A DNA stretch of 64,000 nt from Pseudomonadota bacterium (lineage in GTDB: Bacteria > Pseudomonadota > Gammaproteobacteria > Burkholderiales > SG8-39): assembly GCA_021811085.1 (NCBI GenBank), contig JAJZPQ010000002.1:132698-196697 (forward strand), in the 5' to 3' direction. Under the pieces are notes generated by a model. That model saw nothing but the letters and a program-made list of their open reading frames with translations. It did not search any database and was not told the origin of the DNA. Positions 10,631 through 55,297 of this stretch are shown piece after piece (position 1 is the stretch's first letter; every line of letters begins with the position of its first letter). The translations under genes were made by a program, and so were the position numbers.

Positions 10631-10754
10631 ACGCGCCGTGCGCCGATGCCGGGACAAAACGCAGGTTCTGCAGTGTCAGCGCCGCTTGCTCAAGCGGAAT
10701 CTTTCCCCTTCTCGAAATCGGGAATCGGCCGGTCGAGCAGTCAGCGTGGAAACC

Positions 10755-10828
10755 TGGAGGCTGGGGTCGGAATCGAACCGGCGTACACGGCTTTGCAGGC
10801 CGCTGCATGACCACTCTGCCACCCAGCC
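10755..10828 (-). tRNA. tRNA-Cys (GCA)
   Basis: Reverse complement GGCTGGGTGGCAGAGTGGTCATGCAGCGGCCTGCAAAGCCGTGTACGCCGGTTCGATTCCGACCCCAGCCTCCA. 74 nt, cloverleaf-compatible acceptor and T arms (GGTTCGATTCC), anticodon loop CT-GCA-AA, encoded CCA. Confidence 0.93.
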
Positions 10829-10926
10829 GTATAGAGCACGCGCCAGCCAGGCGCTGCGGCAATCTGGAACGGGGAGCGCGCCTGCGGCTTGCGCCGCAGG
10901 CCGTTACGCGCCTTCCCTTCGAATCT

Positions 10927-11002
10927 TGGAGCGGCAGAAGAGTCTCGAACTCTCGACCTCAACCTTGGCAAGGTTGCGCTCTACCAACTGAGCTACTGCC
11001 GC
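10927..11002 (-). tRNA. tRNA-Gly (GCC)
   Basis: Reverse complement GCGGCAGTAGCTCAGTTGGTAGAGCGCAACCTTGCCAAGGTTGAGGTCGAGAGTTCGAGACTCTTCTGCCGCTCCA. 76 nt, D-loop AGCTCAGTTGGTAGAGC, anticodon GCC, encoded CCA. Confidence 0.93.
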
Positions 11003-11040
11003 AAGAGGATGCGAATTATACCGGGGTTTTGCCCCGGGGA

Positions 11041-11610
11041 TCAACCATGTTTTATCACTGTGGGCATGGCCATTTTGAGGTAATAAAACATGGACCACAG
11101 GGTGAGCACTGCCGCGAGCAGGATCAGCCCGGTGCCCCAAGGCTGCGGCCGGAACGCGCCGATCGCATCGTGGTAGAGCAGCATCGGGATCGCGACCATC
11201 TGCGACACGGTCTTGATCTTGCCCACCATGGATACGGCGACGCTTTTGCCTGCGCCCAGCTGCGCCATCCACTCGCGCAGCGCCGAAATGGTGATTTCCC
11301 TGCCGATGATGATCACCGCGATCACCGCGTTCAGCCGGTTGAGGTCGACCAGCACGATCAGCGCCGCAGCGACCATCAGCTTGTCCGCGACCGGATCGAG
11401 GAAAGCGCCGAACGCGGACACCTGGTTCAGCTTGCGCGCGAGATAGCCGTCGAGCAGATCGGTCAGCGCTGCAGCCGTAAAAATGACGGTCGCGATCAGA
11501 TTTTGTTGCGGCGGCGTGAGCCAGGTGGGCGGGAAATAATACACGCCCACGAACAGCGGAATCATCACAATGCGCATCCAGGTGAGCGCATTCGGAACAT
11601 TGAAACGCAT
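11041..11610 (-). CDS. pgsA: CDP-diacylglycerol--glycerol-3-phosphate 3-phosphatidyltransferase
   Basis: MRFNVPNALTWMRIVMIPLF and the CDP-alcohol phosphatidyltransferase motif DLLDGYLARK...GAFLDPVADK. Start at ATG 11610. uvrC-pgsA-tRNAGly-tRNACys order as in E. coli. Confidence 0.9.
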   Translation of the reverse strand: MRFNVPNALTWMRIVMIPLFVGVYYFPPTWLTPPQQNLIATVIFTAAALTDLLDGYLARKLNQVSAFGAFLDPVADKLMVAAALIVLVDLNRLNAVIAVIIIGREITISALREWMAQLGAGKSVAVSMVGKIKTVSQMVAIPMLLYHDAIGAFRPQPWGTGLILLAAVLTLWSMFYYLKMAMPTVIKHG

Positions 11611-11724
11611 GGCGAATATCCAAAAATGCAGGCTTCCTCGCGTGCCAGCCGCGCCCGGAAGCGCCGACCGCCGCTCGCACCGGGTTGCAATACCAGCCGT
11701 CAAGATACCTCAATCGGCCGCAGC

Positions 11725-13551
11725 TTAGTGCAACTCCCGGTAAATTTTTTCGGCCAGCTTGCGGCTGATGCCCTGCACCTGGGCCAGGTCGTCGATGCTC
11801 GCGCCGATCACTCCCTTGAGGCCGCCGAAACGCGCCAGCAGCTCCCTGCGCCGTTTCGCGCCGATGCCGCTGATGCCTTCCAGCGACGAAGTCACGCGCG
11901 CCTTGCCGCGGCGCGCGCGATGCCCGGTGATGGCGAAGCGGTGTGCTTCGTCGCGGATCGCCTGGATCAGATGCAGGCCCGGATTGTCGCGCGCAAGCTG
12001 GATGCTGCTCTTGCCGTCGGCGCAGATCAGCTGTTCCAGGCCCGGCTTGCGCGCCTCGCCCTTGGCCACGCCGTAGAGATAGATGTCGCTCAAACCGAGT
12101 TCGGCCAGCACCTCGCGCGCTACGCCGACCTGGCCCTTGCCGCCGTCGATCAGGATCAGGTCGGGCACGACCCCCTCCCCGCGCGAAATCTTCTCGTAGC
12201 GGCGCTGCAGCACCGAGCGCATGGCGGCATAATCGTCGCCGGCCTGTATGCCGGCGATGTTGTAGCGCCGATATTCGGAATTGCGCATCTCCGCGCGGTC
12301 ATAGACGACGCAGGAGGCGACCGTCGCCTCGCCCTGGGTATGACTGATGTCGAAGCATTCGATGCGCTGAACCGTATCGGGCAGCGCCAGGGCCTCGCGC
12401 AGCGCGGCCAGCCGCGCTTCCTGGTTGCTGGCCTCCGACAGGCGCTGCGCCAGCGCCAGCTGGGCGTTCTTTTGCGCCATCTCGACCCAGGCGCGGCGCT
12501 GCCCCTGCGGCCGCACGACGATCTGGACCGCATGCCCTGCCTGCTGCGCCAGCGCAGCCTCGATCTCCTGCGCATCGAACTCCGCCCCGGCGACGATGAT
12601 CGCCGGCACCTGCCGGTTCACGTAATGCTGCGCGAGGAAAGCCTGCAGCACCTCGGACGCGCTGCGCTCCTCGGCGTTGTGCGGAAAAAAGCTCTTGTCG
12701 CCCAGCTGCCGGCCCTGGCGCACCATGGTCAGGTTGACGCAGGCCGCACCCGCGGCTTCGGCGCAGGCGATGATGTCGGCGTCGCCGCCCGTGCTGCTTT
12801 CGGCGTACTGCTTGTGCTGCATGGTCGCCAGCGCCTGGATCTGGTCGCGGTAGAACGCAGCCTGTTCGTAGCGCTGCAGCTCCGCGGCCGCGCGCATTTT
12901 TTCGCCCAGGGCCTGCAGCACGTCGTCCTCGCGTCCCTGCAGGAACAGTTCGGCATTTTTCGCATCGGCGGCATAGCTGTCGCTGTCGATCAGCCCGACG
13001 CAGGGCGCCGAGCAGCGCCGAATCTGGTGCAGCAGGCAGGGCCGGGAGCGGTTCTGGAACACCGAATCCTCGCAGGTGCGCAGGCGGAAGATCTTTTGCA
13101 GCAGCTGTATGCTTTCGCGCACCGCGCCAGTGTGCGGGAACGGGCCGAAGTAGCGGTTCTTGCCGTCGAGCGCGCCGCGGTGAAAGCCCAGGCGCGGATA
13201 GGCATGGCCGCTCAGCATCAGATAGGGATAGGACTTGTCGTCGCGGAACAGGATGTTGTAGCGCGGCGCAAGCGACTTGATCAGGTTGTTTTCCAGGATC
13301 AACGCCTCGGCCTCCGAGCGCGTCACCGTGGTCTCGATCGTTGCGACCTGCGTCAGCATGAGCTCGATGCGCGGGCTCTGCTGGGTCTTCTGGAAATACG
13401 AGCTCACGCGCTTTTTCAGGTCGCGCGCCTTGCCCACGTAGAGCACGTCGCTCTTCGCGTTGAGCATGCGATACACGCCGGGCAAATGCGGCAGGCGGCT
13501 GATCAGCGCCGGCGCGTCGAAAGCCGGCGCGGCTTGCGCAGGCGCGGTCAT
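11725..13551 (-). CDS. uvrC: Excinuclease ABC subunit C
   Basis: GIY-YIG N-terminus ([26 protein letters not shown]), UVR domain, C-terminal (HhH)2 ([23 protein letters not shown]). Start ATG 13551 forms an ATGA overlap with the upstream UDG stop. Confidence 0.93.
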
Positions 13552-14198
13552 GGCGGCCCCAATTCGGCAACGATGTCGCGCAATACCGCGTGGAACATGG
13601 CCTCGGTGAGCCGCTTGGTCTGCGTATTGTAGCGGCTGCAATGATAGCTATCGTAGAGCCTGATGCCTGCAGAAGCGTGCGGCGTCGGCAGGTCGTGCAC
13701 GGCGTGATGCGCAAATTTGCGGCTCGCGCGCTTGAGCCCGCAAGCGAGCAGCACCGCCTCGTGCGCGATGCTGCCCAAAGCGAGGATCACGCGCGGCGGC
13801 CGCGCCCGCAGTTCGGCCGCGAGATAGCGATTGCAGCAGCGGATCTCCTGCGGCAGCGGCTTGTTCTGCGGCGGCAGGCACTTCACTGCGTTGCTGATGC
13901 GGCAGCTCTTCAGCACCAGCGGGTCGTCGGCCGCCACCGACTCGGCCTGGCTGGCGAAGCCGAACTGATGCAGGCTGCGGTACAGCAGGATGCCCGCATG
14001 ATCGCCGGTGAAGGGCCTCCCGGTGCGATTGGCCCCGTGCATGCCGGGCGCAAGGCCCACGATCAGCAGGTCGGCTGCGGCGTCGCCGAACGCAGGCACC
14101 GGCCGCGCATGGTAGCCGGGATACTCCTGCCGCACCTGCTCGAGAAAGTCGGCGAGGCGTGCGCAATCGCGGCAATCGAGGTCGAAGCTAACGGTCAT
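13548..14198 (-). CDS. Uracil-DNA glycosylase superfamily protein (family 4/5-like)
   Basis: [30 protein letters not shown] matches the GLAP..HG.NRTGR.FTGD motif of UDG family 5-type enzymes. Start at ATG 14198 (MTVSFDLDC). Confidence 0.8.
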
Positions 14199-14226
14199 GG
14201 GCGATGCGCGCGCGGCCGCCGCAAGC

Positions 14227-15270
14227 TCAAGCCAGAGCGGCGACGAAGCGCGCGAGTCCCTCTTGCGCCAGCTGGAAGCGCGCATGCGCATGCAGCGTGG
14301 CCAGCCCCGGCGCCAGGCGCACTCCGCGCATCGCGGCGGCGCGCCGCTGGTCAAGCGATGCTCCGTCCAGGCCGTCGAGCAGTTCCTGCGCCGCTGCGGG
14401 CGCATTGCACAACAGCACCATGTCGCATCCCGCATCGAGTGCAGCTCGCCCCCGCTCGACCACACCGCCGGCAACGCTGGCACCTTCCATCGAAAGATCG
14501 TCGCTGAATATCATGCCGTCGAAGCCGAGTTGCCGGCGCAGGATTCGGCGCAGCCACAGCGAAGAAAATCCGGCCGCGTGCGCATCGACCGCGGGGTAGA
14601 TCACGTGCGCCGGCATCACCGCCGCCAAGCCGTGCTGGATCAGATCCCTGTAGGGAAGCAGGTCGGCCGCCTCGATGTCGGCATAACTGCGCTCGTCTAC
14701 CGGCAGCGCCAGATGCGAATCGGCGCGCACATAGCCGTGTCCGGGAAAATGCTTGCCCACGTTCGCCATGCCCGCTTCACGCAGGCCCGCAAGCAATGCC
14801 GCCGACAGCTGCGCGATCGCCACGGGATCCGAATGCAAGGCGCGATCGCCGATCACGCCGCTCGCGCCGAAATCCACGTCCAGCACCGGCGTGAAGCTGA
14901 AGTCCACGCCGCAAGCGAGCAGCTCGCTCGCGAGCACGTAGGCGATATCGCCGGCCGCCTTGCAGGCAGCTGCGCGGTCGCGGTCCCAGGCCTCGCCCAG
15001 GCGCCGCATCGGCGGTATCGCCGAAAAACCATGGCGAAAGCGCTGTACCCGGCCGCCCTCGTGGTCGACCGCAAGCAGCAGTTCGGGCGCGCGCAAGGCG
15101 CGGATTGCTGCCGTCAGTTCGCACAGCTGCTGCGGCGAGCGGTAATTGCGGGTAAACAAAATCACGCCGCCGACCAGGGGGTGGCGCAGGATTTCGCATT
15201 CCGCCGCGCTCAATTCCGTGCCGGCTATGTCGAGCATCACCGGTCCCAAGTCCTGACGCGCCTCAGCCAT
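14227..15270 (-). CDS. nagZ: Beta-N-acetylhexosaminidase (peptidoglycan recycling)
   Basis: 347 aa. MLDIAGTELSAAECEILRHPLVGGVILFTRNY, LLLAVDHEGGRVQRF, KHFPGHG: GH3 NagZ pattern. Confidence 0.88.
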   Translation of the reverse strand: MAEARQDLGPVMLDIAGTELSAAECEILRHPLVGGVILFTRNYRSPQQLCELTAAIRALRAPELLLAVDHEGGRVQRFRHGFSAIPPMRRLGEAWDRDRAAACKAAGDIAYVLASELLACGVDFSFTPVLDVDFGASGVIGDRALHSDPVAIAQLSAALLAGLREAGMANVGKHFPGHGYVRADSHLALPVDERSYADIEAADLLPYRDLIQHGLAAVMPAHVIYPAVDAHAAGFSSLWLRRILRRQLGFDGMIFSDDLSMEGASVAGGVVERGRAALDAGCDMVLLCNAPAAAQELLDGLDGASLDQRRAAAMRGVRLAPGLATLHAHARFQLAQEGLARFVAALA

Positions 15271-15652
15271 GGTCTTCTCCCTCCAGCACCACGAAAGCGC
15301 AAGCCATCTCCACTTCGTCGCTCAGGCTGAGATGGGCGTGACGGATGCCGCGCTGATCGAGCAGCGCGGCGAGCGGCTCGGAAAACTGCAGGTAGGGCCG
15401 GCCCGAGCGTTCGTTGGCGACGCTGACGTTATGCCAGTTGACCGGGAAATGGATGCCGGTGCCCATGGCCTTGGAAAACGCCTCTTTGGCGGCAAAGCGC
15501 TTGGCCAGGTAATGCGCGGGTTTCACGTGCGCGCAAAAGCGCTCGTATTCGTGTTCGACCAGCACACGCAGGGCGAAACGGTGGCCGAAGCGCGCCAGCG
15601 CGCGTTCGATGCGGCGGATATCGATCAGATCAGTGCCGGTACCGAGGATCAC
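15263..15652 (-). CDS. acpS: Holo-[acyl-carrier-protein] synthase
   Basis: [16 protein letters not shown]-terminus and [10 protein letters not shown] motif. GTG start at 15652 overlaps the pdxJ stop (GTGA). 129 aa, the expected size. Confidence 0.85.
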
Positions 15653-16374
15653 GCGCGCCTGGCCTCGGTCATCAGCCGTTTCATTTCGCGCACCGCCGCC
15701 TCCCAGCCGGTGAAAATGGCCTGCGCCACGATCGCATGCCCGATATTGAGTTCGGCGATGCCCGGCACGGCGGCGATCGGTCCGACGTTGTCGTAATTGA
15801 GGCCATGGCCCGCGTTCACTTTCAGGCCGATGCGCCTGCCGTATTCGACGGCGGCGCAAATGCGCTTGAATTCGGCTTGCTGCTCGTCTTGCGCGGCGTC
15901 GGCGTAGTGGCCGGTGTGCAGTTCGATCACCGGCGCGCCGGCCGCCTTCGCCGCATCGATCTGCGCCGTATCGGCATCGATGAACAGGGACACGCGAATT
16001 CCCGCCGCACCAAGCAGCTGGCAGGCTTCGCGCACGCGTACGAGCTGGCTCGCCACATCCAGGCCGCCTTCCGTGGTCAGCTCCTGGCGCCGCTCCGGCA
16101 CCAGGCAGACATCGTGCGGCCGGATGCGCAGCGCGAACTGCAGCATTTCCGGCGTCACCGCGGACTCCAGGTTCATGCGCGTGCGCAGCTGTGCGCGCAG
16201 CGCCTGCACGTCGCGGTCCTGGATATGACGCCGGTCTTCGCGCAGATGCAGCGTAATCGCATCGGCGCCGGCGTTTTCGGCGAGCAGGGCTGCACGCAGC
16301 GGATCCGGATAGCTCGTGCCGCGCACCTGGCGCAGCGTAGCCACATGGTCGATGTTCACGCCGAGTTCAATCAC
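15649..16374 (-). CDS. pdxJ: Pyridoxine 5'-phosphate synthase
   Basis: 241 aa. [46 protein letters not shown]. Confidence 0.93.
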
Positions 16375-45434: not shown

Positions 45435-48182
45435 ATGAAGCGCATGCTGTTTAATGCGACACAGGCCGAAGAACTCCGTGTCGCCATAGTCGATGGTCAA
45501 AAACTCATAGACCTAGACATTGAATCGGCCTCGAAAGAGCAACGCAAGAGCAATATCTACAAGGGTGTCATCACCCGTGTTGAGCCCAGCCTCGAGGCTG
45601 CGTTCATCGATTACGGCACCGACCGACACGGTTTTCTCCCGTTCAAGGAAGTCGCCCGCGCCTATTTCAAGGCAGGTGTCGACGTCGGCCGCGCGCGCAT
45701 CCAGGACGCGCTCAAGGAAGGCCAGGAACTGATCGTCCAGGTGGAAAAGGACGAGCGCGGCAATAAAGGCGCCGCGCTTACCACTTTCATCAGCCTCGCC
45801 GGACGCTACCTGGTGCTGATGCCGAACAACCCGCGCGGCGGCGGCGTATCGCGCCGCGTCGAAGGCGAAGACCGCGAAGAGCTGCGCGACACCATGGACC
45901 AGCTGCCGGTGCCGCAGGGTATGAGCGTCATCGCGCGCACCGCGGGCATCGGCCGCTCGGTGGAAGAACTCGATTGGGACCTGAAATACCTGCTGCAGCT
46001 GTGGCATGCGATCGAGGAGGCCTCCACCAGCCAGAAAGGCGCGTTCTTGATTTACCAGGAAGGCAGCCTCGTGATCCGCGCCATCCGCGACTACTTCCAT
46101 CCGGAAATCGGCGAGATCCTGATCGACACCGATTCTATCTTCGAGCAGGCGCAGCAGTTCATGGCGCATGTGATGCCGGACAACGTGAACCGGGTGAAGC
46201 GCTACCGCGACGACGTGCCCCTGTTCTCGCGCTTCCAGATCGAGCACCAGATCGAAACCGCCTATTCGCGCCAGGTCAACCTGCCTGCGGGCGGCGCCGT
46301 GGTCATCGACCATACCGAGGCGCTGGTGGCGATCGACGTCAACTCGGCGCGCTCCACCCGCGGCAGCGACATCGAGGAAACTGCGTTTCGCACCAATCTC
46401 GAGGCAGCCGAGGAGATCGCGCGCCAGCTGCGCCTGCGCGACCTGGGCGGCCTGATCGTGATCGACTTCATCGACATGGAGTCGCAGCGCAACCAGCGCG
46501 AAGTCGAAAACCGCCTGCGCGAATCGCTGCACTTCGACCGCGCGCGCGTGCAGATGGGCAAGATTTCGCGCTTCGGCCTAATGGAACTGTCGCGCCAGCG
46601 CCTGCGCCCGTCGCTAGGCGAAGGCAGCACCATCACCTGCCCGCGCTGCAATGGCATCGGCCATATCCGCGGCATCGAATCCACGGCGCTGCACATCCTG
46701 CGCATCATCCAGGAAGAAGCGATGAAGGAAAATACCGCCGCCGTGCATGCGCAGGTGCCGGTGGACGTCGCGACCTTCCTCTTGAACGAGAAGCGCACCG
46801 ACATTCACAGCGTGGAAGCGCGCCTCAAGGTCAATGTAGTGCTGATCCCGAACACGCATTTGGAAACGCCGCATTACCAGATTTCGCGCCTGCGCCACGA
46901 CGATCTGAACCAGGCCGAACCGCTGCCCGCCAGCTATAACATGGTGCAATTGCCGGCCGAGGAAGAAACCAAGCCGCAGACCGGCGCAGAGCCGAAGGCG
47001 GTGCGGCAGCAGGCCGCGGTGCAGGGCATCACCCCAGCCGAACCCGCGCCTATGCCGGTGGCGAAACCGGCCGCCCCGCAGGAGCAAGCCAAGCCAGGCA
47101 TCATTTCCCGCATCATGGGTTGGTTCAAGGGAGAAACTCCTGCGGCCGAGGCCGAACCCAGCAGCGGCATTCGTCCTTCGCGCCGTGAACCCCGGCGTGA
47201 GCCGCAGCGCGATCGCGGTGAACGCGGTGAACGCGGAGATCGTGGAGAGCGCGGCGGACGTGGCGGGCGCGGCGGACGCGACCGGCAGGAGCGCGGTGGA
47301 CGCGAAGCACGTCCGGCGCAAGGCGAAGTCAACCGGCCGGAACAGCGCGAGCCGCGTCAGGAACGCAGCCGCGGCGAGCGCCCGGAACGCGAAGCACGTC
47401 CCGAGCGCGGTGAACGCCCCGAGCGCGAAGCGCGGCCGGAACGGGAAGCACGTCCCGAGCGCGGTGAGCGCCCGCAGCGCGAACCGCGTGAACCACGCGA
47501 GCCGCGTCAGCCAAGAGTGCAACCGCAAGGCGAGCTGCAGTCCGGCGCCGAAGCCAGGCCGCAGGGTGAAGCACGTCCCGAGGGCGGCGAACCCGGACGC
47601 AGTCGCGGCCGGCGCGGCCGCGGTGGCCGCGGTGAACGCGGTGAAAGAGGCGACCGCGGTGAACGTGGTGAACGCGGTCCGCGCATGGAGCGCGGCGAGC
47701 GGACCGAGCCAGCCGAACGCGTGCGCGCCGAGCAAGCCGAACACGCCGCGCGCGCGCTGCGCGAGGAGCACGAAGCTGAACCGCAAACCGAACCGAGCAC
47801 GCCGCTGGAGTCGGCCATGCCCGAGGAGCATCGGCCTGCCCCGGCACCCGTAGAGGCTGCGATTTTCGCTGAGCCGGCTGCAGCTGTTGCGGCGGTCGAA
47901 CTCAGCGCCGTGCCTGAACCCGCAGCGCCTGCGCCTGCGATCAGCCGCGTTGAACCCGCCGTCGCAACGGCGCCTGTCGCGCCGCCGGCGCCTGCGCCGA
48001 TCGATGTCGATAAGGCATTGCAGGAAAGCGGCCTGGTGCTGGTGCAGACCGATCCGAGCAAAGTGAAGCTGGCAGAGCCGCCAGCCGAGCCTCAGTTCGT
48101 GCCGGCGCGGCCGCGTCCGCGGCGCACCCCGCCCCCCGACTCCGGGCCACTGCAAATCGTGGAAACACGCAAAGATGCCTAA
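45435..48182 (+). CDS. rne: Ribonuclease E
   Basis: 915 aa. [31 protein letters not shown]1 domain, the DNase-I-like/Zn-link catalytic half ([12 protein letters not shown]), then a low-complexity Arg/Glu/Pro-rich scaffold half. Confidence 0.95.
47170..47720 (+). repeat. Degenerate in-frame tandem repeats encoding the Arg/Glu/Gly/Pro-rich segments of RNase E
   Basis: The protein reads [21 protein letters not shown] ... (ERPEREARP / [12 protein letters not shown]) x several ... [24 protein letters not shown]. The DNA shows repeated cgcgaagcacgtcccgagcgcggtga units. All other frames stay open here because of composition. Confidence 0.7.
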
Positions 48183-48374: not shown

Positions 48375-49601
48375 ATGACCCAATCCGCAGTCAACAATCC
48401 GGACGAACCCATGCTCGCCGGGATTACCGTCCTCGATTTCACCCGCGTGCTGGCCGGACCGTACGCGACGCGCATGCTCGCCGATCTGGGCGCGCATGTG
48501 ATCAAGATCGAACGCCCCGGCGAAGGCGATGAGATCCGCCATACCGTGCTGCAACTCGATCCCGCACGCACGGACCAGAGCAGTTATTTCGCGCGGCTGA
48601 ACGCGGGCAAGGAGAGCATCGCCATCGATCTCGCGCATGCGCAGGCGCGCGAAATCGCGCTCGACCTGGTGCGCAACGCGGATGTGGTGGTGGAAAATTT
48701 CTCCCCCGGCGTGATGGCGCGCTACGGCCTGGACGATGCCGCGCTGCGCGCCCTGCGCCCCGACCTCGTCTACTGCTCGATCTCGGGCTTCGGCCAGACC
48801 GGACCGCTCGCTTCGATGCAGGCCTACGCGCATCTGATCAATGCCATCTCCGGCATGATGGACCTGGACCGCGGCAGCGAGGCGCAGCCGCGCGTGGCCT
48901 ATTTGCAGGCGGCCGATGTGCTCGCCGGCGCCCATGCATTCGGCGCGATCTGCGCAGCCCTGGTGCGCCGAGGCCGCAGCGGGCGCGGCGCCTACCTGGA
49001 CGTGTCGATGCTCGAGTGCCTGGTCGCCGCGGACGACCTCACCTACGGCGCGATCCTGAACGGCGGCAAGGTGCAACGCGAGCCGCGCATAGGCATGGTG
49101 GTGCATCCCATAGGCGGGCGTTACCTGGCGATGCAAAGCGCGGGCGCGCCGCACCTGTGGTCGCGCCTGGTGAACCTGATCGGCCGGCCCGAACTCGAAA
49201 CCGATCCGCGCTTTTCCACGCCGATGGCGCGGCGCGCGAACTGGCATGACCTGCTCAAAATCCTGCGCGCGTGGCTCAGCGGCTTCGACAGCGTGGAACA
49301 GGCGGTCAAAACGCTTTCTGCGGCGCGCATCCCGGCCGTGCCCATGCTCTCCCCCGAGGAAGTCATCGACCACCCGCAGCTCGCGGCGCGCTCGGCGTTT
49401 CCCGAAATCGAGCACCGCGGCCGCGGCCGCATACGCGTGACGGCGCTGCCGTTCCATGTCGACCACGCCCCGGTCGCCCCGGGCGGCCCGGCGCCCTATC
49501 GCGTCGGCGAACATACGCAGCAGGTGCTGCAAGGACTCGGCTACGATGCCGAGCGCATCCGTGCGCTGCAGGCGGAGCGGGTGGTCGAGATTCCGGACTG
49601 A
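48375..49601 (+). CDS. Family III CoA-transferase (CaiB/BaiF family)
   Basis: GITVLDFTRVLAGPYATRMLADLGAHVIKIERPGEGDEIR is the family III N-terminal signature. Start ATG 48375, 48333 or 48411. Confidence 0.85.
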   Translation: MTQSAVNNPDEPMLAGITVLDFTRVLAGPYATRMLADLGAHVIKIERPGEGDEIRHTVLQLDPARTDQSSYFARLNAGKESIAIDLAHAQAREIALDLVRNADVVVENFSPGVMARYGLDDAALRALRPDLVYCSISGFGQTGPLASMQAYAHLINAISGMMDLDRGSEAQPRVAYLQAADVLAGAHAFGAICAALVRRGRSGRGAYLDVSMLECLVAADDLTYGAILNGGKVQREPRIGMVVHPIGGRYLAMQSAGAPHLWSRLVNLIGRPELETDPRFSTPMARRANWHDLLKILRAWLSGFDSVEQAVKTLSAARIPAVPMLSPEEVIDHPQLAARSAFPEIEHRGRGRIRVTALPFHVDHAPVAPGGPAPYRVGEHTQQVLQGLGYDAERIRALQAERVVEIPD

Positions 49602-50045
49602 ATCCAGACTCCCGGAGCTGATGCCGGGCGCGTATCTGCAGAACGACAAAGCCGCCGTCGATGCCGAACTCGCGGCAGACGATTACATCCGGCAGACCTA
49701 TCTCGGTGTTGCATGAATGCCTCGACCCGCAGGCATGGACGCGGCTTGGCCCTGGATCAACGAACGCAAGATTCCGGGATAGCGGCGCCAAGCGATGCAC
49801 TTGTTTCGCAGTAAATCCAGTGTCGCACCTTCGTCTTCACCAACCCACCTTGGGCCGCTATCTGCCGCAAAGCGAACGAATTATCCGACGGCTTAAGGGG
49901 TCGTGTTTCGGCCAGAACCGACATTGGCTAAGCTTCCCCATAAAACATAGACACGCGCAGTGGAAGCAACATCGGTCTCAGCCCCACGGGACGGCGCGCA
50001 AATCAGATTGGCCTTGCGCCTCCACGAAGGTGTCTGAGCCTAGAG

Positions 50046-50082
50046 AACCCAGTTCTGGGTTGACTTAACCCATATCTGGGCT
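50046..50082 (+). promoter_or_regulatory. Two operator-like 16-bp dyads (AACCCA-N4-TGGGYT) spaced 21 bp apart
   Basis: Dyad 1 is AACCCAGTTCTGGGTT (50046-50061), with perfect 7-bp arms. Dyad 2 is AACCCATATCTGGGCT (50067-50082), 5/6 in the right arm. Dyad 1 abuts or overlaps the -35; dyad 2 fills the promoter spacer. Confidence 0.45.
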
Positions 50083-50088
50083 CATTAT
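50060..50088 (+). promoter_or_regulatory. Candidate sigma70 promoter placing the transcription start at or next to the ATG (leaderless mRNA)
   Basis: TTGACT (50060-50065, 5/6), a 17-nt spacer, CATTAT (50083-50088, 4/6 with A2 and T6), then 6 nt (ATCCAG) to the ATG at 50095. No Shine-Dalgarno sequence before that ATG. Confidence 0.5.
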
Positions 50089-50094
50089 ATCCAG

Positions 50095-50571
50095 ATGAAG
50101 ACGCGAAAACTTACTGCCTCAGATGTTTGCGAGGTCACAGGATATAGCAGGGATCAACTCAAAGCGCTGCTAAAAGGGGTGCCCACTTGGTCTCCCGCGC
50201 CGAGCGCACGCGTAGCGAGGGAATTCTTGCCGCATGACTTGATCGTGCTCGGAGTGGTTCGGGCTCTTGACAGCCGCGTAGGCATGCGGCGCAAGCAGAT
50301 AGGATTGATGCTTCCAAAATTGCGGCAAGCGTTACTTGGCCCGCGGGAAGTGGATAGGTCCGCCTATCTGGCGATCTCGTTCAATCCACTGCATGTCGAG
50401 TACGTCAGCGAAAAGACTTCAATTAGGGAAGGAGTCATGGTTTCGCTTGAGCCCATTTTCGACCGCGTCGACGGTTACCTTGGTGCGGCTCAATCTTGGA
50501 ACGCGTCCCAAGAGAACCTTCGGCTTCCGCTCGGCGCGGTTCGATCCCGTCGACGTAAAGCCGCCGGGTAA
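50095..50571 (+). CDS. MerR/excisionase-like HTH protein, putative regulator of the islet operon
   Basis: 158 aa. LTASDVCEVTGYSRDQLKALLK followed by FLPHDLIVLGVVRALDSRVGMRRKQIG resembles the MerR-type HTH + wing layout. The C-terminal ~80 aa are unassigned. 14 nt upstream of the methyltransferase. Confidence 0.55.
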   Translation: MKTRKLTASDVCEVTGYSRDQLKALLKGVPTWSPAPSARVAREFLPHDLIVLGVVRALDSRVGMRRKQIGLMLPKLRQALLGPREVDRSAYLAISFNPLHVEYVSEKTSIREGVMVSLEPIFDRVDGYLGAAQSWNASQENLRLPLGAVRSRRRKAAG

Positions 50572-50585
50572 GAAAGTCCAGTACG

Positions 50586-53540
50586 ATGAACGCCGCGCCG
50601 CTCCAACGAGTCCTCGAAGCAACTGGCTTCTTTCCGGATGGAGAACCTGCGCGCGGACTTCAGTTAGCCGCCAAGGCCCGTGAACGTCGTGGGCGGGTAT
50701 TTTCGCCCGATGCATCCTGGCGAAGCCCTTCCGCACTCAAGGTCTACTTCAAGTTCGAACCGAGCATACCTTTGAACAGCGTCATCGGTGAATGGCGCCG
50801 CGAGATCTGGAACGAAGGATTCTCACCACTATTGTGGATTGTCTCACCGGACAAAATTGAGCTTTTCAATGGTTTTGGCGAGCCGATGGAAAGCGGTGAT
50901 GCTGAGGCCAACCGGATCGCTACCTTTCGAAACATCGATTCTGAACTTCGTGAGCTGGATGCCCTAGCAGGTCGTGTGGCACTTGAGACGGGTCAGTCCT
51001 GGCGTCAAATGCCACAGATCGACCGGAAGTCGAGCGTCGACCAGAGACTACTGTCCGATTTGGCGCACCTGGAACACGATTTAGTTGAGATGAATCTCGA
51101 TAGGCACGCGGCTCAGGCACTAATCGGCAGGACCATATTCACGCAATATCTCATCGACCGTGGAATCGTTAGTTCCTTGCGGCTCAAGAAGCTGACCGGA
51201 CATTCGACACTTCCGCCAATACTTCGAGACCGAAATGCTACTGCCCGGCTCTTTGCGTGGCTAAGCGAGACGTTCAACGGCGACATGTTCCCGCCATCTT
51301 CAGCAACGAACACTCCACGCACCTCCTACTTGGGCCGAGTAGCAGATTTTCTCGCCGCAACCGATCCGGTCTCGGGGCAAACTTCATTCTTTCCTTATCA
51401 ATTTGACGTGATCCCCGTTGAGTTGATTAGTTCGATCTACGAGCAGTTCGCCCACTCGGCTTCCGAATCCAAGGCCGGCGTAGACGCTCGAAAGCATGGA
51501 ATTCACTACACGCGGCTCTCCGCAGTCTCGTTGGTCCTTGACGAGGTCATGAATGGACTCACGGGACGGGAAAGTGTGCTCGATTTGACCTGCGGTTCCG
51601 GGGTTTTCCTTGTCGAGGCGTTGCGCCGGCTCGTTGCGCTGCAAACTCCTGATGGAAGTCCGTCGCGCGATGTAATCCGGAAGACGCTTTATCAGCAGGT
51701 TTACGGAATCGATCTGAGCGAGGCCGCGATTCGGGTTGCGGCATTCAGTTTGTACCTTTCGGCGCTTGAGCTGGACCCAGATCCGCATCCCCCAGAGGAA
51801 CTCAAGTTCGATCCTCTAGTTAATCGAACGCTTTTTGCGGGAAACGCTCACACAATCGAGCTAACTCGAGAAGGCGCGGCGCGGCTCACGGAAGATGGCG
51901 CCCTGAAAAAGTTCGATCTAATCGTAGGTAACCCGCCTTGGAGCTTCAAAGGCAAACGTGGGACAGCTGCCAGACGCAAAGGTCGAGCCCACGGTGTGCC
52001 CGCGCAACCGCGCGGTGAAGGGCTGGATTTTCTTCATCGCGCAATAGCGTTTTCGCACGAGAGAACCAGATTCGGGGTGATTCTTAACGCAATGTCGTTT
52101 TTCAGTGGGAGTGCCACTGGCATCGCGGCCGCAAAGCACGTTCTGCGTCTTCTGGCTCCTGTCACTTTAGTAAATCTGTCCTCGCTATCTGGCTGGTTGT
52201 TCGCCACAGCGAGTGCGCCAGCGGTCGTCCTTTACGCGCGGCATCGCGCGCAACGACCTGATCAATTGACAGTTGTCCAAGTACCTTGGTCGGCCGCTGG
52301 TACCCGGACACACACGTTCGAGGTTTCACGGAGTGATGTCATACGGCTAACACTCGCGGAGGTCGAGAAGAATCCGTTCAAACTCAAGGCGGCTGCAGTG
52401 GGCCGGCGCCGCGATCTGGCACTTCTCGACGATCTCGGCTCTTCGTTCTCCACGTTGGCCGCACAGCTTACCTTGTTCCAAACCAAACTGAGCGATGGGC
52501 TTACCCACGGTTCACCAAGTAATCAGACTCGCGATGCGCGCGCCCTGAAGGGGCTTGAGGTACTCGACGCCAAAAATATCAGGCCGATGTCAATTCCAGA
52601 CTCTCTCCCGCGCTTTACGCTGTTAAGAGCTCAGTGGCCTCGGACACAAGAGACGTATCGCGCTCCACTCGTGATTATCAAGGAAATGGTTGGAGACAAT
52701 GCCCGGGCAATAGCGGCCGTATCTGAGCGAGACCTTATTTTTACTGATGCATTTTTCGGCGTGTCTCTGCCCAAGAGTTATGCTCCAATCGCGCATCTTC
52801 TCGTCGCGGTGTTGAGCTCATCGGTCGCGTCGTGGTTCTTCACAATGACTGCTTCTGAATTCGCGATCTGGAAGCGGAAACTCCTGATTCGGGACGTGAA
52901 TCTCTTGCCGATCCCGGATCTTAAGGCGGCCGCGGCATCTTCCGTTGGCAAGCAGCTATTGCGTCTGTCGAGGAAGATGCATGGGCAAGTCGGAGGCGCC
53001 GATGATTGGGCTGCCTTAGACCTAGCGGTATTCGATCTTTATGGGCTTGATGACGCAGACCGCGCAGTGGTGCAAGACGGTTGGTTCCGAGCAAGCTGGC
53101 AATGGCAGGCCGGAAGGGAAGCATCCGTGTCGGCTGCAAGCATCGACTTGGATCTCCCCAACTACGCTCGACTATTTCTATCCGTGGTTTCAGGCTGGCT
53201 TTCTATTCGGAATGAACAGCATATGCGCGCGGAGATTTTCGACGTGCCAGCGCGAAATGCACTGCGAGTCATCAGATTTATACTTGAACCAGGATCAGGA
53301 CCGTCCAGCATCAATGTGGTTCAAGTCAACTGCGAACTTAACGAGGTGCTAGCGAACATTGGCAAGCGGCTCAATGTAAAAATCGCCAGCGCATTGAGCG
53401 CGAGCCGGGAGCTACGCGTCCATGGCAGAAACGAGGTCGTCATCGTGAAGCCGTCGGCTCGTCGCTATTGGATGGGCGTTTGCGCCCTCGATGATGCTGA
53501 TGCCGTGGTGGCTGAAAGCCTCGCCGGTACCGCTGAATGA
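50586..53540 (+). CDS. Large gamma-class N6-adenine DNA methyltransferase with MmeI/Eco57I-like layout (unassigned N-domain, helical connector, MTase, large C-terminal specificity region)
   Basis: 984 aa. ELISSIYEQF (res ~279-288). Motif X HGIHYTRLSAVSLVLDEV. Motif I VLDLTCGSGVFL (res 331-342, nt 51576-51611). Motif IV NPPW (res 449-452, nt 51930-51941). Connector LIGRTIFTQYLIDRGI (res ~179-194). About 430 aa after the MTase core have no motif I recognise. Confidence 0.85.
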   Translation: MNAAPLQRVLEATGFFPDGEPARGLQLAAKARERRGRVFSPDASWRSPSALKVYFKFEPSIPLNSVIGEWRREIWNEGFSPLLWIVSPDKIELFNGFGEPMESGDAEANRIATFRNIDSELRELDALAGRVALETGQSWRQMPQIDRKSSVDQRLLSDLAHLEHDLVEMNLDRHAAQALIGRTIFTQYLIDRGIVSSLRLKKLTGHSTLPPILRDRNATARLFAWLSETFNGDMFPPSSATNTPRTSYLGRVADFLAATDPVSGQTSFFPYQFDVIPVELISSIYEQFAHSASESKAGVDARKHGIHYTRLSAVSLVLDEVMNGLTGRESVLDLTCGSGVFLVEALRRLVALQTPDGSPSRDVIRKTLYQQVYGIDLSEAAIRVAAFSLYLSALELDPDPHPPEELKFDPLVNRTLFAGNAHTIELTREGAARLTEDGALKKFDLIVGNPPWSFKGKRGTAARRKGRAHGVPAQPRGEGLDFLHRAIAFSHERTRFGVILNAMSFFSGSATGIAAAKHVLRLLAPVTLVNLSSLSGWLFATASAPAVVLYARHRAQRPDQLTVVQVPWSAAGTRTHTFEVSRSDVIRLTLAEVEKNPFKLKAAAVGRRRDLALLDDLGSSFSTLAAQLTLFQTKLSDGLTHGSPSNQTRDARALKGLEVLDAKNIRPMSIPDSLPRFTLLRAQWPRTQETYRAPLVIIKEMVGDNARAIAAVSERDLIFTDAFFGVSLPKSYAPIAHLLVAVLSSSVASWFFTMTASEFAIWKRKLLIRDVNLLPIPDLKAAAASSVGKQLLRLSRKMHGQVGGADDWAALDLAVFDLYGLDDADRAVVQDGWFRASWQWQAGREASVSAASIDLDLPNYARLFLSVVSGWLSIRNEQHMRAEIFDVPARNALRVIRFILEPGSGPSSINVVQVNCELNEVLANIGKRLNVKIASALSASRELRVHGRNEVVIVKPSARRYWMGVCALDDADAVVAESLAGTAE

Positions 53541-54199
53541 AACTGCCCGACGAGGCCCCGGCGGCGCTCGGCCACGAGTTTATTGCGCTATCTACGGACG
53601 TCACTGTCGCGATACTCACTATTCTGACCGCTGGATGGCGCCGTGCGAAAGCATACCGCGACGTAAATACGCAGGCTGGTGAGGTACCTGTCACAGAGCG
53701 TCTTCGGGACGGTATGAGACAAGCGCTCAAGCTGGATGGATATCCGTGGGCCAAGATGCTCTTGGTGCTACCCGGAACGGAGGCGCGATCACGGGAAGCG
53801 CTTGTTCCAGATGGTCGGACCGATATCCCGCTCGTATGGCTTGAGATTTTTCTTCGGCACGGCGAGCATGATCCGCATGCGATCGTTGAATGTAAGCGGA
53901 TCGCTGGCTCGGACACATCCCTTTGCCGCGAATATGTGATCGAAGGCATAGACCGGTTCCGGTCCGGCAAGTATGGGTTCAATCACGCTGTCGGCTTTAT
54001 GGTCGGATATTTGCTTTGTGGCACCGATGCAGAGGCGGTCGCGGGTATCAATGGCTATTTAAACCGGCAAGGCCGCACTGATGAAGAGCTTCGCAGCTCG
54101 GGTTCGGCAGCAGCGACGTGGGCTAGTCGTCATGGCCGAGCTTCCTCCTCCGCAATTTCGCTGCACCATATGTTCTTTGAGCTCGCAACAGTGATGTGA
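53537..54199 (+). CDS. Mrr-like PD-(D/E)xK nuclease (putative restriction endonuclease partner)
   Basis: 220 aa. Helix VTERLRDGMRQALKLDGY (E54), then VPDGRTDIPLVW (P91-D92, D96), then AIVECKRIAG (E118-C-K120, nt 53888-53896): the classic E...PD...ExK order. The ATG overlaps the methyltransferase stop (ATGA at 53537-53540). Confidence 0.6.
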   Translation: MKLPDEAPAALGHEFIALSTDVTVAILTILTAGWRRAKAYRDVNTQAGEVPVTERLRDGMRQALKLDGYPWAKMLLVLPGTEARSREALVPDGRTDIPLVWLEIFLRHGEHDPHAIVECKRIAGSDTSLCREYVIEGIDRFRSGKYGFNHAVGFMVGYLLCGTDAEAVAGINGYLNRQGRTDEELRSSGSAAATWASRHGRASSSAISLHHMFFELATVM

Positions 54200-54592
54200 T
54201 AAATCAGAACAGAGCTTATCCTGAGTCGGTGTGGGGGGCGAAGATTAGCGACCCTAAACCTGGGCTTCGTTGCAACGGCTGCGAGACAAGTCCAAGATGT
54301 TGGGAATGATCGCTTTGGGTCGGATACGGCCGGTTAATCAAGCGTGATCGAGGTCCGCCCCTGGCGGCAAAGCGATTACGGCACCAATACGAGGACCGCC
54401 GCCCTGTTTGCTCGCAGACAGGAAAATCGCGAGAGGGGAAAAGCCCTAAACTCCGCGTCCCTCCTCGCTCTGCGGCCGATTCCCCGCCGAACTTTGAGCG
54501 CGTAGCCCGCCCTCTCCCGCCTCACCGGGAGAGGAATTTCCCGTCCTGACTTTTCTCCGGCGCCCGTACCTGGCGCTTTGCCCCTCGGGGAA

Positions 54593-55297
54593 TCAGCGTC
54601 CCGCGCCGCGGCTGCGCACCAGCTGGTACGGCCGCAGCAGGTAGAACACCGAGGCGAAGCCGCTCCAGATATGCACCAGGCGCGTGAACGGAAACAGCAG
54701 GAAGATCGTGAGGCCGATGGTCAGGTGCAGCTTGAACACGATCGAGGCGCCGGCGATGAGGTCTGCCGCTCCCGAGCGGAAGGTCCAGATGCGCTGCGCC
54801 CAATCCATCAGTTTCAGCATCTCCGAGCCGTCGAGGTGCTGCGCCGAGACCGGGATCGTGGCGAGACCGATCAGGACCTGCACCAGGAACAACACGAGCA
54901 CCAGGATATCGCTCGGTTTGCTGGTGGCGCGAATGCGCGCGTCGCCGAGACGGCGCAGCAGCAGAATCAGCAATCCCGCGGTCAGGATCACCCCGAAAAT
55001 TCCTCCCGCGATCATCGCTGTCAGTTGCTTTTCGCTCGCCGGTACTCCCAGAAAGTTCCACACCGCGTGCGGCGTGAGCAGGCCGCCGAGGTGGCCGAAG
55101 AAAATGCCAAGGATGCCGATGTGGAACAGGTTCGACCCCCATCTGAGCTGGCCATGGCGCAGCAACTGGGACGAATCGCTCTTCCAGGTGTACTGCTCGC
55201 GGTCGAAGCGGATCAGGCTGCCGAGGAAAAACACCACCAGGCAGATGTACGGGTAATAGCCGAACAGGAACTGGTTCAGATAGGCGTTGAGGTCCAT
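54593..55297 (-). CDS. narI: Respiratory nitrate reductase gamma subunit
   Basis: 234 aa. MDLNAYLNQFLFGYYPYICLVVFFLGSLIRFDREQYTWKSDSSQLL, with haem-ligand His in the TM helices. Confidence 0.93.
   Translation of the reverse strand: MDLNAYLNQFLFGYYPYICLVVFFLGSLIRFDREQYTWKSDSSQLLRHGQLRWGSNLFHIGILGIFFGHLGGLLTPHAVWNFLGVPASEKQLTAMIAGGIFGVILTAGLLILLLRRLGDARIRATSKPSDILVLVLFLVQVLIGLATIPVSAQHLDGSEMLKLMDWAQRIWTFRSGAADLIAGASIVFKLHLTIGLTIFLLFPFTRLVHIWSGFASVFYLLRPYQLVRSRGAGR

Follow-up and report, generated by a model that had tools for sequence, protein, structure and literature searches.

The question raised by this locus is what a low-GC group of three genes represents, lying between a CoA-transferase gene and narI in the genome of a Pseudomonadota bacterium (contig JAJZPQ010000002.1, positions 132,698 to 196,697; this whole stretch of 64,000 nucleotides is referred to as the window, and positions are counted from its first letter). 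The genes encode a helix-turn-helix protein (HTH), a large DNA methyltransferase (MT) and a small putative nuclease (NUC), and an earlier note, made from the letters of the sequence, had taken them for a candidate uncharacterised restriction or defence module. We find that they form a real, mobile and conserved three-gene module, and we favour, with a probability of about 0.58, the reading that it is a split "Type IIG-like" restriction-modification (RM) module in which MT would recognise the target, NUC would cleave it and HTH would act as an autoregulator.

The islet is an insertion of foreign, horizontally acquired DNA, because a related site exists without it and because its composition deviates from that of its surroundings. 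In the metagenome contig L096 (L numbers denote the loci that were compared), whose nar operon is 87% identical and whose CoA-transferase and rne genes are 82% identical to the window at the nucleotide level, the stop codons of narI and the CoA-transferase gene lie 13 bp apart (L096:6551-6565), which is the empty site that the earlier note had envisaged among relatives. In the window, the 4,991 bp from the one stop codon to the other (49602-54592) have a GC content of 0.564, about 5 standard deviations (sd) under the mean of the 197 other 5-kb segments (0.632, sd 0.013, minimum 0.603), and the GC content at third codon positions (GC3) is 0.58-0.59 in the HTH, MT and NUC genes compared with 0.75-0.87 in rne, the CoA-transferase gene and narGHJI; the abrupt drop first noticed by counting single lines is thus borne out and extends to GC3. 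The narI/CoA-transferase junction (window 49598-54602) is, moreover, a variable spot among related genomes. It is occupied in L093, the closest relative at the junction, with a nar operon 90% identical, by genes for a MazE-type antitoxin and a PIN toxin (8706-9765), and in L095 by a 7.4-kb block that includes a branched-chain amino-acid ABC transporter (8697-16150). The absence of a mobility gene had also been remarked upon, and indeed no integrase, transposase or tRNA gene was found in the islet; the module is an acquired one, at a site that is empty in L096 and occupied by a toxin-antitoxin pair in L093.

A defined part of the islet recurs elsewhere. In blastn comparisons, an identity of 76-78% extends over exactly 50033-54202 in L173 and L175-L179, where the copies stand in other genomic contexts, and since only this interval is shared with copies elsewhere, we take the travelling unit, hereafter the cassette, to be the promoter region with its operators and the three genes, all on the plus strand and translationally coupled. 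These are the open reading frames (ORFs) of HTH (50095-50571, 158 aa), MT (50586-53540, 984 aa) and NUC (53537-54199, 220 aa); a gap of 14 nt separates the first two, and the stop of MT and the start of NUC overlap as ATGA, so that the tight plus-strand packing described before holds. On either side lies orphan DNA, 431 bp on the left (49602-50032) and 390 bp on the right (54203-54592), both segments being absent from the other cassette copies and from the empty site. The non-coding flanks of the genes, which contain no long ORFs, measure 493 bp (49602-50094) and 393 bp (54200-54592), exactly as had been reported. As a separate observation, in three close copies of the cassette a 569-aa protein with no Pfam match is encoded 77 nt after NUC (L177:4978-6687, L178:4718-6427 and L179:4572-6281), and it is absent from the window.

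Within the cassette, MT and NUC form a pair. A locus scan with one genome per species gave 109 loci, 80 of which were fetched, and there were 85 NUC-containing loci in all, with 81 genome loci. At each of the 85, a homologue of MT (about 987 aa, 51-66% identical to the window MT) lies directly upstream of NUC, with either an 8-nt gap or a 4-nt overlap. The adjacency is found also in distant relatives of NUC, with 25-32% identity, namely on two Agrobacterium plasmids (L086), where the two genes are annotated as "N-6 DNA methylase" and then "hypothetical protein", and on two metagenome contigs (L180 and L181). Pairwise identities of MT and of NUC are closely correlated (r = 0.96, 73 distinct pairs). 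An HTH gene of about 155-163 aa precedes MT, overlapping its start by 4 nt, in 55 of the 81 genome loci, and ORF clustering at the 81 loci returned no gene family besides HTH that is widely conserved around the pair. Judged by this gene order, NUC is an obligate genomic partner of MT. Three apparent MT-NUC fusions (P0319, P0352 and P0308) were set aside and do not count as Rosetta-stone evidence, because they are frameshifted or garbled ORFs and not natural fusions.

The methyltransferase matches the Pfam families N6_Mtase (2e-11), Eco57I and MmeI_Mtase, all above their cut-offs, and carries motif I (LDLTCGSG) at residues 332-339 and NPPW at residues 449-452 (nt 51930-51941). The PADLOC model REase_MTase_IIG PDLC03623 aligns with residues 143-975 (E 9e-48) and a second PADLOC IIG model with residues 73-456, and PADLOC or a standard pipeline would call the gene RM type IIG. 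The conservation profile suggests an N-terminal domain at about residues 1-145, predicted to be non-catalytic, followed by a helical linker, a methyltransferase core at about 300-560, a variable region resembling a target recognition domain (TRD) at about 600-700 and then a C-terminal domain; the most variable segment, residues 600-690, lies beside a weak match to TaqI_C (E 0.14). By its motifs and profile matches, MT is a gamma-class N6-adenine DNA methyltransferase that resembles Type IIG enzymes in its length and in the order of its domains, and the earlier description of a Type IIG-sized methylase devoid of its own nuclease motif agrees with both the PADLOC match and the absence of PD-ExK.

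The same match raises the alternative that MT is a full Type IIG enzyme in a single chain, with a nuclease of non-canonical type at its N-terminus (D42, K56 and perhaps E73), and that NUC has an accessory part, such as that of a subunit nicking the second strand or of a nuclease unrelated to the system. The PADLOC IIG models do align from residue 73 or 143, and the N-domain is strongly conserved, with a putative motif that reads P41-D42...Y54-F55-K56, in which P41-D42 and K56 are invariant in the core family and have a PD...xK-like spacing. However, the middle acidic position is Y54 or V everywhere (V in the distant member L180), and in the distant member L181 D42 is replaced by S and K56 by R, while the presumably structural residues W75, N76, G78, P81, W84 and P88 are kept in distant members. 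A natural truncation also argues against a catalytic N-domain: the Agrobacterium plasmid NZ_CP116694.1 (L086:5759-8648) encodes a 739-aa methyltransferase that corresponds to residues 264-977 of the window MT, the first 263 residues (N-domain and helical linker) are missing, and yet the overlapping NUC gene is kept; this locus has no HTH gene, and tblastn upstream of the methyltransferase detected no trace of the N-terminal part. In Pfam the N-domain gave no match to the MmeI N-terminal family or to any other nuclease (E <= 1), and its profile gave chance matches only against PDB sequences. Taken together, these points make the single-chain enzyme very unlikely. A paralogous nuclease heterodimer composed of the MT N-domain and NUC was dropped as a candidate, the two being unrelated (profile-profile probability of 0.1%).

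The D...ExK pattern is conserved in NUC only, in line with the earlier remark that the sole clear nuclease motif sits in a separate, coupled ORF. All members examined, down to 25-32% identity, share D92, D96, E118, K120 and R121 without exception, and the catalytic candidates are D96 (nt 53822-53824), E118 (nt 53888-53890) and K120 (nt 53894-53896), the last two in the motif E118-C-K120. A confident AlphaFold2 (AF2) model, the only one of five (pLDDT 81, pTM 0.81), has the order helix-strand-strand-strand-helix-strand (H49-66, E75-77, E96-101, E115-123, H127-143 and E152-161), in which D96 opens one strand and E118-x-K120 lies in the next. Foldseek comparison of this model with the viral library BFVD gave as its best match, a weak one, an Mrr-domain restriction endonuclease (E 0.024, TM score of about 0.3), with a phage restriction endonuclease and a PD-(D/E)XK nuclease domain protein lower in the list; against the PDB, Foldseek returned nothing at E < 0.1 (top match Can2, 0.17), and the NUC profile gave chance matches only among PDB sequences. 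NUC has no match in Pfam, NCBIfam, PADLOC or PHROGs. We regard NUC as likely to be the catalytic nuclease, of a putative PD-(D/E)xK, Mrr-like type, and the MT N-domain as likely to be non-catalytic, both because of these conservation patterns and not because of a solved or confidently matched fold.

The NUC family is large and widespread, with members in hundreds of bacteria. It counts more than 1,000 homologues in 90% clusters and 1,038 clusters at 50% identity, all of them "hypothetical protein" wherever any source names them, and it occurs in Proteobacteria, Latescibacterota, Acidobacteriota, Gemmatimonadota, Rhodothermales, Nitrospirales and Opitutales, with a median identity of 57% and recognisable relatives at 25%. 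The phage collection contained no match, and the plasmid collection contained NUC on two Agrobacterium plasmids only.

At 220 aa and with a classical D...ExK motif, NUC is comparable in size to many Type IIP endonucleases, and adjacent, coupled genes are found in many Type II systems, so the cassette might be read as an ordinary two-enzyme Type II system, with NUC an independent sequence-specific endonuclease and MT its large cognate methyltransferase. This is unlikely for several reasons: (i) MT has one catalytic domain and the architecture of methylators that act on one strand of an asymmetric site, so that, from what is established for Type IIS, IIG and III systems, host DNA would come under attack just after replication if the nuclease acted on its own; (ii) the median identity of 57% within NUC is much higher than is usual among stand-alone Type II endonucleases; and (iii) the divergence of NUC tracks that of MT (r = 0.96).

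In the split RM module that we favour, MT would recognise a short asymmetric site through its own C-terminal region and methylate one adenine, marking the host DNA, and NUC would dock on MT, possibly on the conserved non-catalytic N-domain, and cut unmethylated DNA with Mg2+ by means of D96, E118 and K120. In Type IIL/IIG and Type III systems one strand is marked and cleavage is coupled to the methyltransferase or recognition subunit. NUC has no detectable DNA-recognition module of its own, and its dependence on MT is proposed because a methyltransferase of such architecture, with a single catalytic domain, marks one strand. A single recognition domain would then direct methylation and cleavage alike, in the manner of Type IIG and Type III enzymes but with no ATPase. 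The cassette would act as a defence and addiction module, which would explain why it is found as cargo in conjugative elements, at Type I RM loci and at a spot that elsewhere holds a toxin-antitoxin pair.

The third protein would provide the control. On its own, the window HTH protein reaches only HTH_26 in Pfam, below the cut-off (E 0.005), and, being too diverged for tblastn, this 158-aa protein was linked to the main HTH family by profile-profile comparison, in which its small family aligns over the full length (hhalign, probability 96%, E 2e-9). Members of the main family pass the MerR_1 cut-off of Pfam (26.8 and 23.7 bits, the cut-off being 21.6). The HTH protein is thus a divergent member of a MerR_1-like family and a putative autoregulator, and the MerR-like character suggested for it before applies to the family of about 155 aa that stands behind conserved operator-like dyads.

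A promoter and operator-like dyads belonging to the cassette itself had likewise been proposed, and both have counterparts in relatives. A pattern scan located a sigma-70-like promoter, TTGACT-17-CATTAT, on the plus strand at 50060-50088, which is the only such site in 49550-54650, has hexamers conserved in relatives and ends 6 nt before the ATG of HTH. The first dyad, AACCCAGTTCTGGGTT (50046-50061), overlaps the -35 hexamer with its last two bases, and the second, AACCCATATCTGGGCT (50067-50082), spaced 21 bp from the first, fills the spacer between the -35 and -10 hexamers, a place resembling that of a MerR operator; the spacer is the usual position of MerR operators. The copies of 76-78% identity retain both hexamers and the arms of the dyads and differ in the dyad centres and flanks. 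The conserved dyads differ by HTH subfamily: they read AACCCAnnnCTGGGTT in the subfamily of the window and GTTGnnnnCAAC in the main family, in which they are placed at the -35 hexamer and just before the ATG. Such a joint change of operator and regulator is to be expected if HTH regulates its own gene. In the proposed mechanism, HTH would bind the two dyads over the -35 hexamer and the spacer and set the level of the HTH-MT-NUC transcript, acting as C-proteins do in classical systems. With its transcription start inferred, this mRNA is probably leaderless, because the promoter ends 6 nt before the ATG.

The contexts of the cassette elsewhere speak of mobility. At 20 of the 81 genome loci (L027-L041, L047, L048, L054, L056 and L083; for example L036:2042-19828), it lies inside the transfer genes of conjugative elements, in the order TraC, a DsbA-like gene, the cassette, TraU, TraG_N, AbiEi and TraI_2. 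Near-identical cassettes in these integrative and conjugative elements (ICEs) occur in Thiobacillus, Stutzerimonas, Thauera, Dyella, Zoogloea, Rhodanobacter and Dechloromonas, and the exact MT protein of the ICE type is a "MULTISPECIES" entry present on 322 contigs, including contigs of P. aeruginosa. A Propionivibrio metagenome-assembled genome (JAGNOM01) holds two cassettes in one bin, L007 and L041, one of them of the ICE-borne type, with MT proteins that are 66% and 63% identical to that of the window; the two may have different specificities.

Type I RM genes were found within 10 kb of the cassette at 11 of the 81 loci (L020, L025, L026, L044, L057, L059, L069, L071, L073, L074 and L075), from Latescibacterota, Gemmatimonadota, Rhodothermales and others, and in all 11 the HTH gene is missing; in L073 and L075 the MT-NUC pair stands between hsdM and hsdR-ygjP. 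The closest relatives of the window cassette, L173-L176, have the HTH gene and lie between hsdS and hsdR. Placement at Type I RM loci is thus seen in two divergent subfamilies of the cassette, and it may stem from a preferred site of insertion or from a functional link of the PrrC kind. The contexts as a whole fit mobile defence or addiction cargo, and a functional tie to Type I systems is compatible with them as well.

On the latter side, one could suppose that no restriction takes place at all: MT would be an epigenetic or ICE-serving methylase and NUC would work in repair, recombination or competition between plasmids or ICEs, or the pair would be a PrrC-like back-up effector of Type I systems. 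The 20 of 81 loci in ICE transfer operons, the 11 of 81 together with L173-L176 in or beside Type I RM loci, the lack of an HTH regulator of its own in every Type I-adjoining copy of the genome set and the unusual conservation of MT over its whole length would all suit such a role. Against it, the window copy and 36 other HTH-bearing loci have none of the ICE markers or Type I genes searched for within 10 kb; a DNA methylase strictly coupled to a D...ExK protein is the hallmark of systems that tell self from non-self by modification; and travel as mobile cargo, like the presence of a toxin-antitoxin pair at this site in a relative, is in keeping with a selfish module for defence or addiction. 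We therefore hold a role outside restriction to be rather improbable. A bolder variant, which we consider doubtful, is that of a minimal ATP-independent two-subunit enzyme in which a methyltransferase lacking a helicase licenses an Mrr-like nuclease through its N-domain and which in many lineages is perhaps wired into Type I RM loci as a second-line effector, like PrrC of EcoprrI, firing when the Type I system is disabled. Such wiring, if true, would have the MT-NUC pair between hsdS and hsdR without a regulator of its own.

Several observations weigh against the split RM module. The whole of MT, including the recognition region, is unusually conserved for an RM enzyme, with a median identity of 60% across several phyla. 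With the order regulator-methyltransferase-nuclease and both enzymes behind one promoter, it is not obvious how restriction would be held back relative to methylation when the cassette enters a new host. Support for the nuclease fold of NUC comes from the motif, one good AF2 model out of five and a weak Foldseek match, and the AF2 model of MT, built from a 26-sequence alignment, is unusable (pLDDT 50). The promoter scan by itself is not above chance, as shuffled sequence gives 2.2 +/- 1.3 sites. Finally, the functional roles of MT, NUC and HTH are all inferred from sequence.

The neighbourhood of the islet requires one correction, since the earlier note had placed all neighbouring genes on the opposite strand: the CoA-transferase gene (48375-49601, Pfam CoA_transf_3) and rne, which encodes RNase E as a 915-aa ORF (45435-48182), are on the plus strand, and only narGHJI is opposite. 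S1, RNase_E_G and thioredoxin-like domains were identified in the rne product, an ORF left without a Pfam match in the precomputed annotation, and an anomaly in composition at 47000-47800 (GC 0.74, AT skew 0.59) corresponds to the part of rne downstream of these domains. Metagenome records treat as a gene a 56-aa ORF at 49546-49716, which overlaps the CoA-transferase gene at its end; it is probably spurious. Short palindromes lie in the left orphan flank at 49886-49903 and 49925-49940. In the right flank, outside the shared cassette, a perfect 9-bp stem with a 6-nt loop (54511-54534, not assigned to a strand) is a possible terminator; it is followed by no T-run. An Rfam scan of 49400-54800 found no RNA family.

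With regard to its significance, defence-annotation pipelines would report a lone "Type IIG" or "HsdM-family" methylase here and overlook both NUC and HTH. Should the split-enzyme model hold, the cassette would rank with the smallest RM architectures in which one recognition domain is shared and no ATPase is present, attractive for the study of cleavage licensing and as a source of new specificities, and it adds a MerR-type example to the RM controller proteins. The general picture of RM biology is unchanged by it. What makes it worth noting is its compact architecture and a nuclease partner that is abundant yet has escaped annotation; no new principle is involved.

A recognition motif was sought through a methylome already described. 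Thiobacillus denitrificans ATCC 25259 has a single IIG-annotated gene, Tbd_0925 (TdeDORF925P), matched to N6-methyladenine at CCAAGA, and strain DSM 12475 of this species carries the cassette (L036), where a search of the surrounding 10 kb gave no Type III gene. The taxonomy lists the two strains separately, no mention of Tbd_0925 was found in the literature, and CCAAGA is at most a lead to the motif of the family, with Tbd_0925 a possible counterpart of the MT gene in L036.

Among known systems, the most distant likenesses are to PglX/BrxX of BREX and to Mad2 of MADS, with which MT shares a weak similarity in the region that binds S-adenosylmethionine. The BREX-type matches are confined to about 65 residues and that to mad2 to residues 153-557, and MT scores 27 bits against the NCBIfam model BREX_2_MTaseX, which has a cut-off of 400. 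Readings as BREX, MADS, DISARM or Type III were rejected: the scores are far below cut-off and no partner gene of these systems is conserved around MT-NUC, with no PglZ, BrxC, BrxL, mad1, mad3-8 or Res helicase among the families conserved around the pair at the 81 loci.

Closer parallels exist in regulation. C-protein systems have an Xre-type regulator of about 80-100 aa, with C and R cotranscribed and M separate. Like the C-protein Type II RM systems PvuII, AhdI and Esp1396I, the cassette puts its regulator first, has paired dyads on its own promoter and a leaderless-like transcript; unlike them, it has a MerR_1-like regulator of about 155 aa and the order regulator-M-R. Its regulation, as far as the arrangement of genes and dyads indicates, works like a C-protein circuit without the cassette being a member of that family. 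In its methyltransferase, the cassette resembles MmeI and the Type IIL/IIG enzymes, both being about 920-1000 aa long with a gamma-class N6-adenine core and NPPW, and it differs from them in that MT has no PD-ExK in its N-domain and the nuclease motif stands in a second protein. Of the Pfam families named after MmeI, only MmeI_Mtase matches MT at E <= 1, and a search of PDB sequences with the MT family profile gave no entry named MmeI.

A literature search found no description of a three-gene HTH-MT-NUC system. The closest precedent is that of Blow et al. (2016), who described "Type IIG-like" systems in which an MmeI-like methyltransferase/TRD protein without PD-ExK has its nuclease on a separate peptide, such as AchA6III, in which methyltransferase/TRD is paired with a PLD nuclease/translocase, and OspHL35III, in which it is paired with a translocase and a GIY-YIG nuclease (PMC4752239). 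The logic is the same, a methyltransferase/TRD protein without the motif beside an adjacent nuclease gene, with one recognition domain presumably serving both activities in each case; the cassette differs in that its nuclease is a putative 220-aa PD-(D/E)xK protein and not of the PLD or GIY-YIG type, in that it has no ATPase or translocase, and in that it has a dedicated MerR-like regulator (PMC4752239). The proposal of an uncharacterised defence module consequently stands in part: the split logic has a precedent and PADLOC would already call MT, while the nuclease partner, which has no match in the databases, and the controller are new. What the cassette adds to the split-nuclease logic already described (PMC4752239) is a small putative PD-(D/E)xK partner unaccompanied by a translocase, together with a MerR-type controller.

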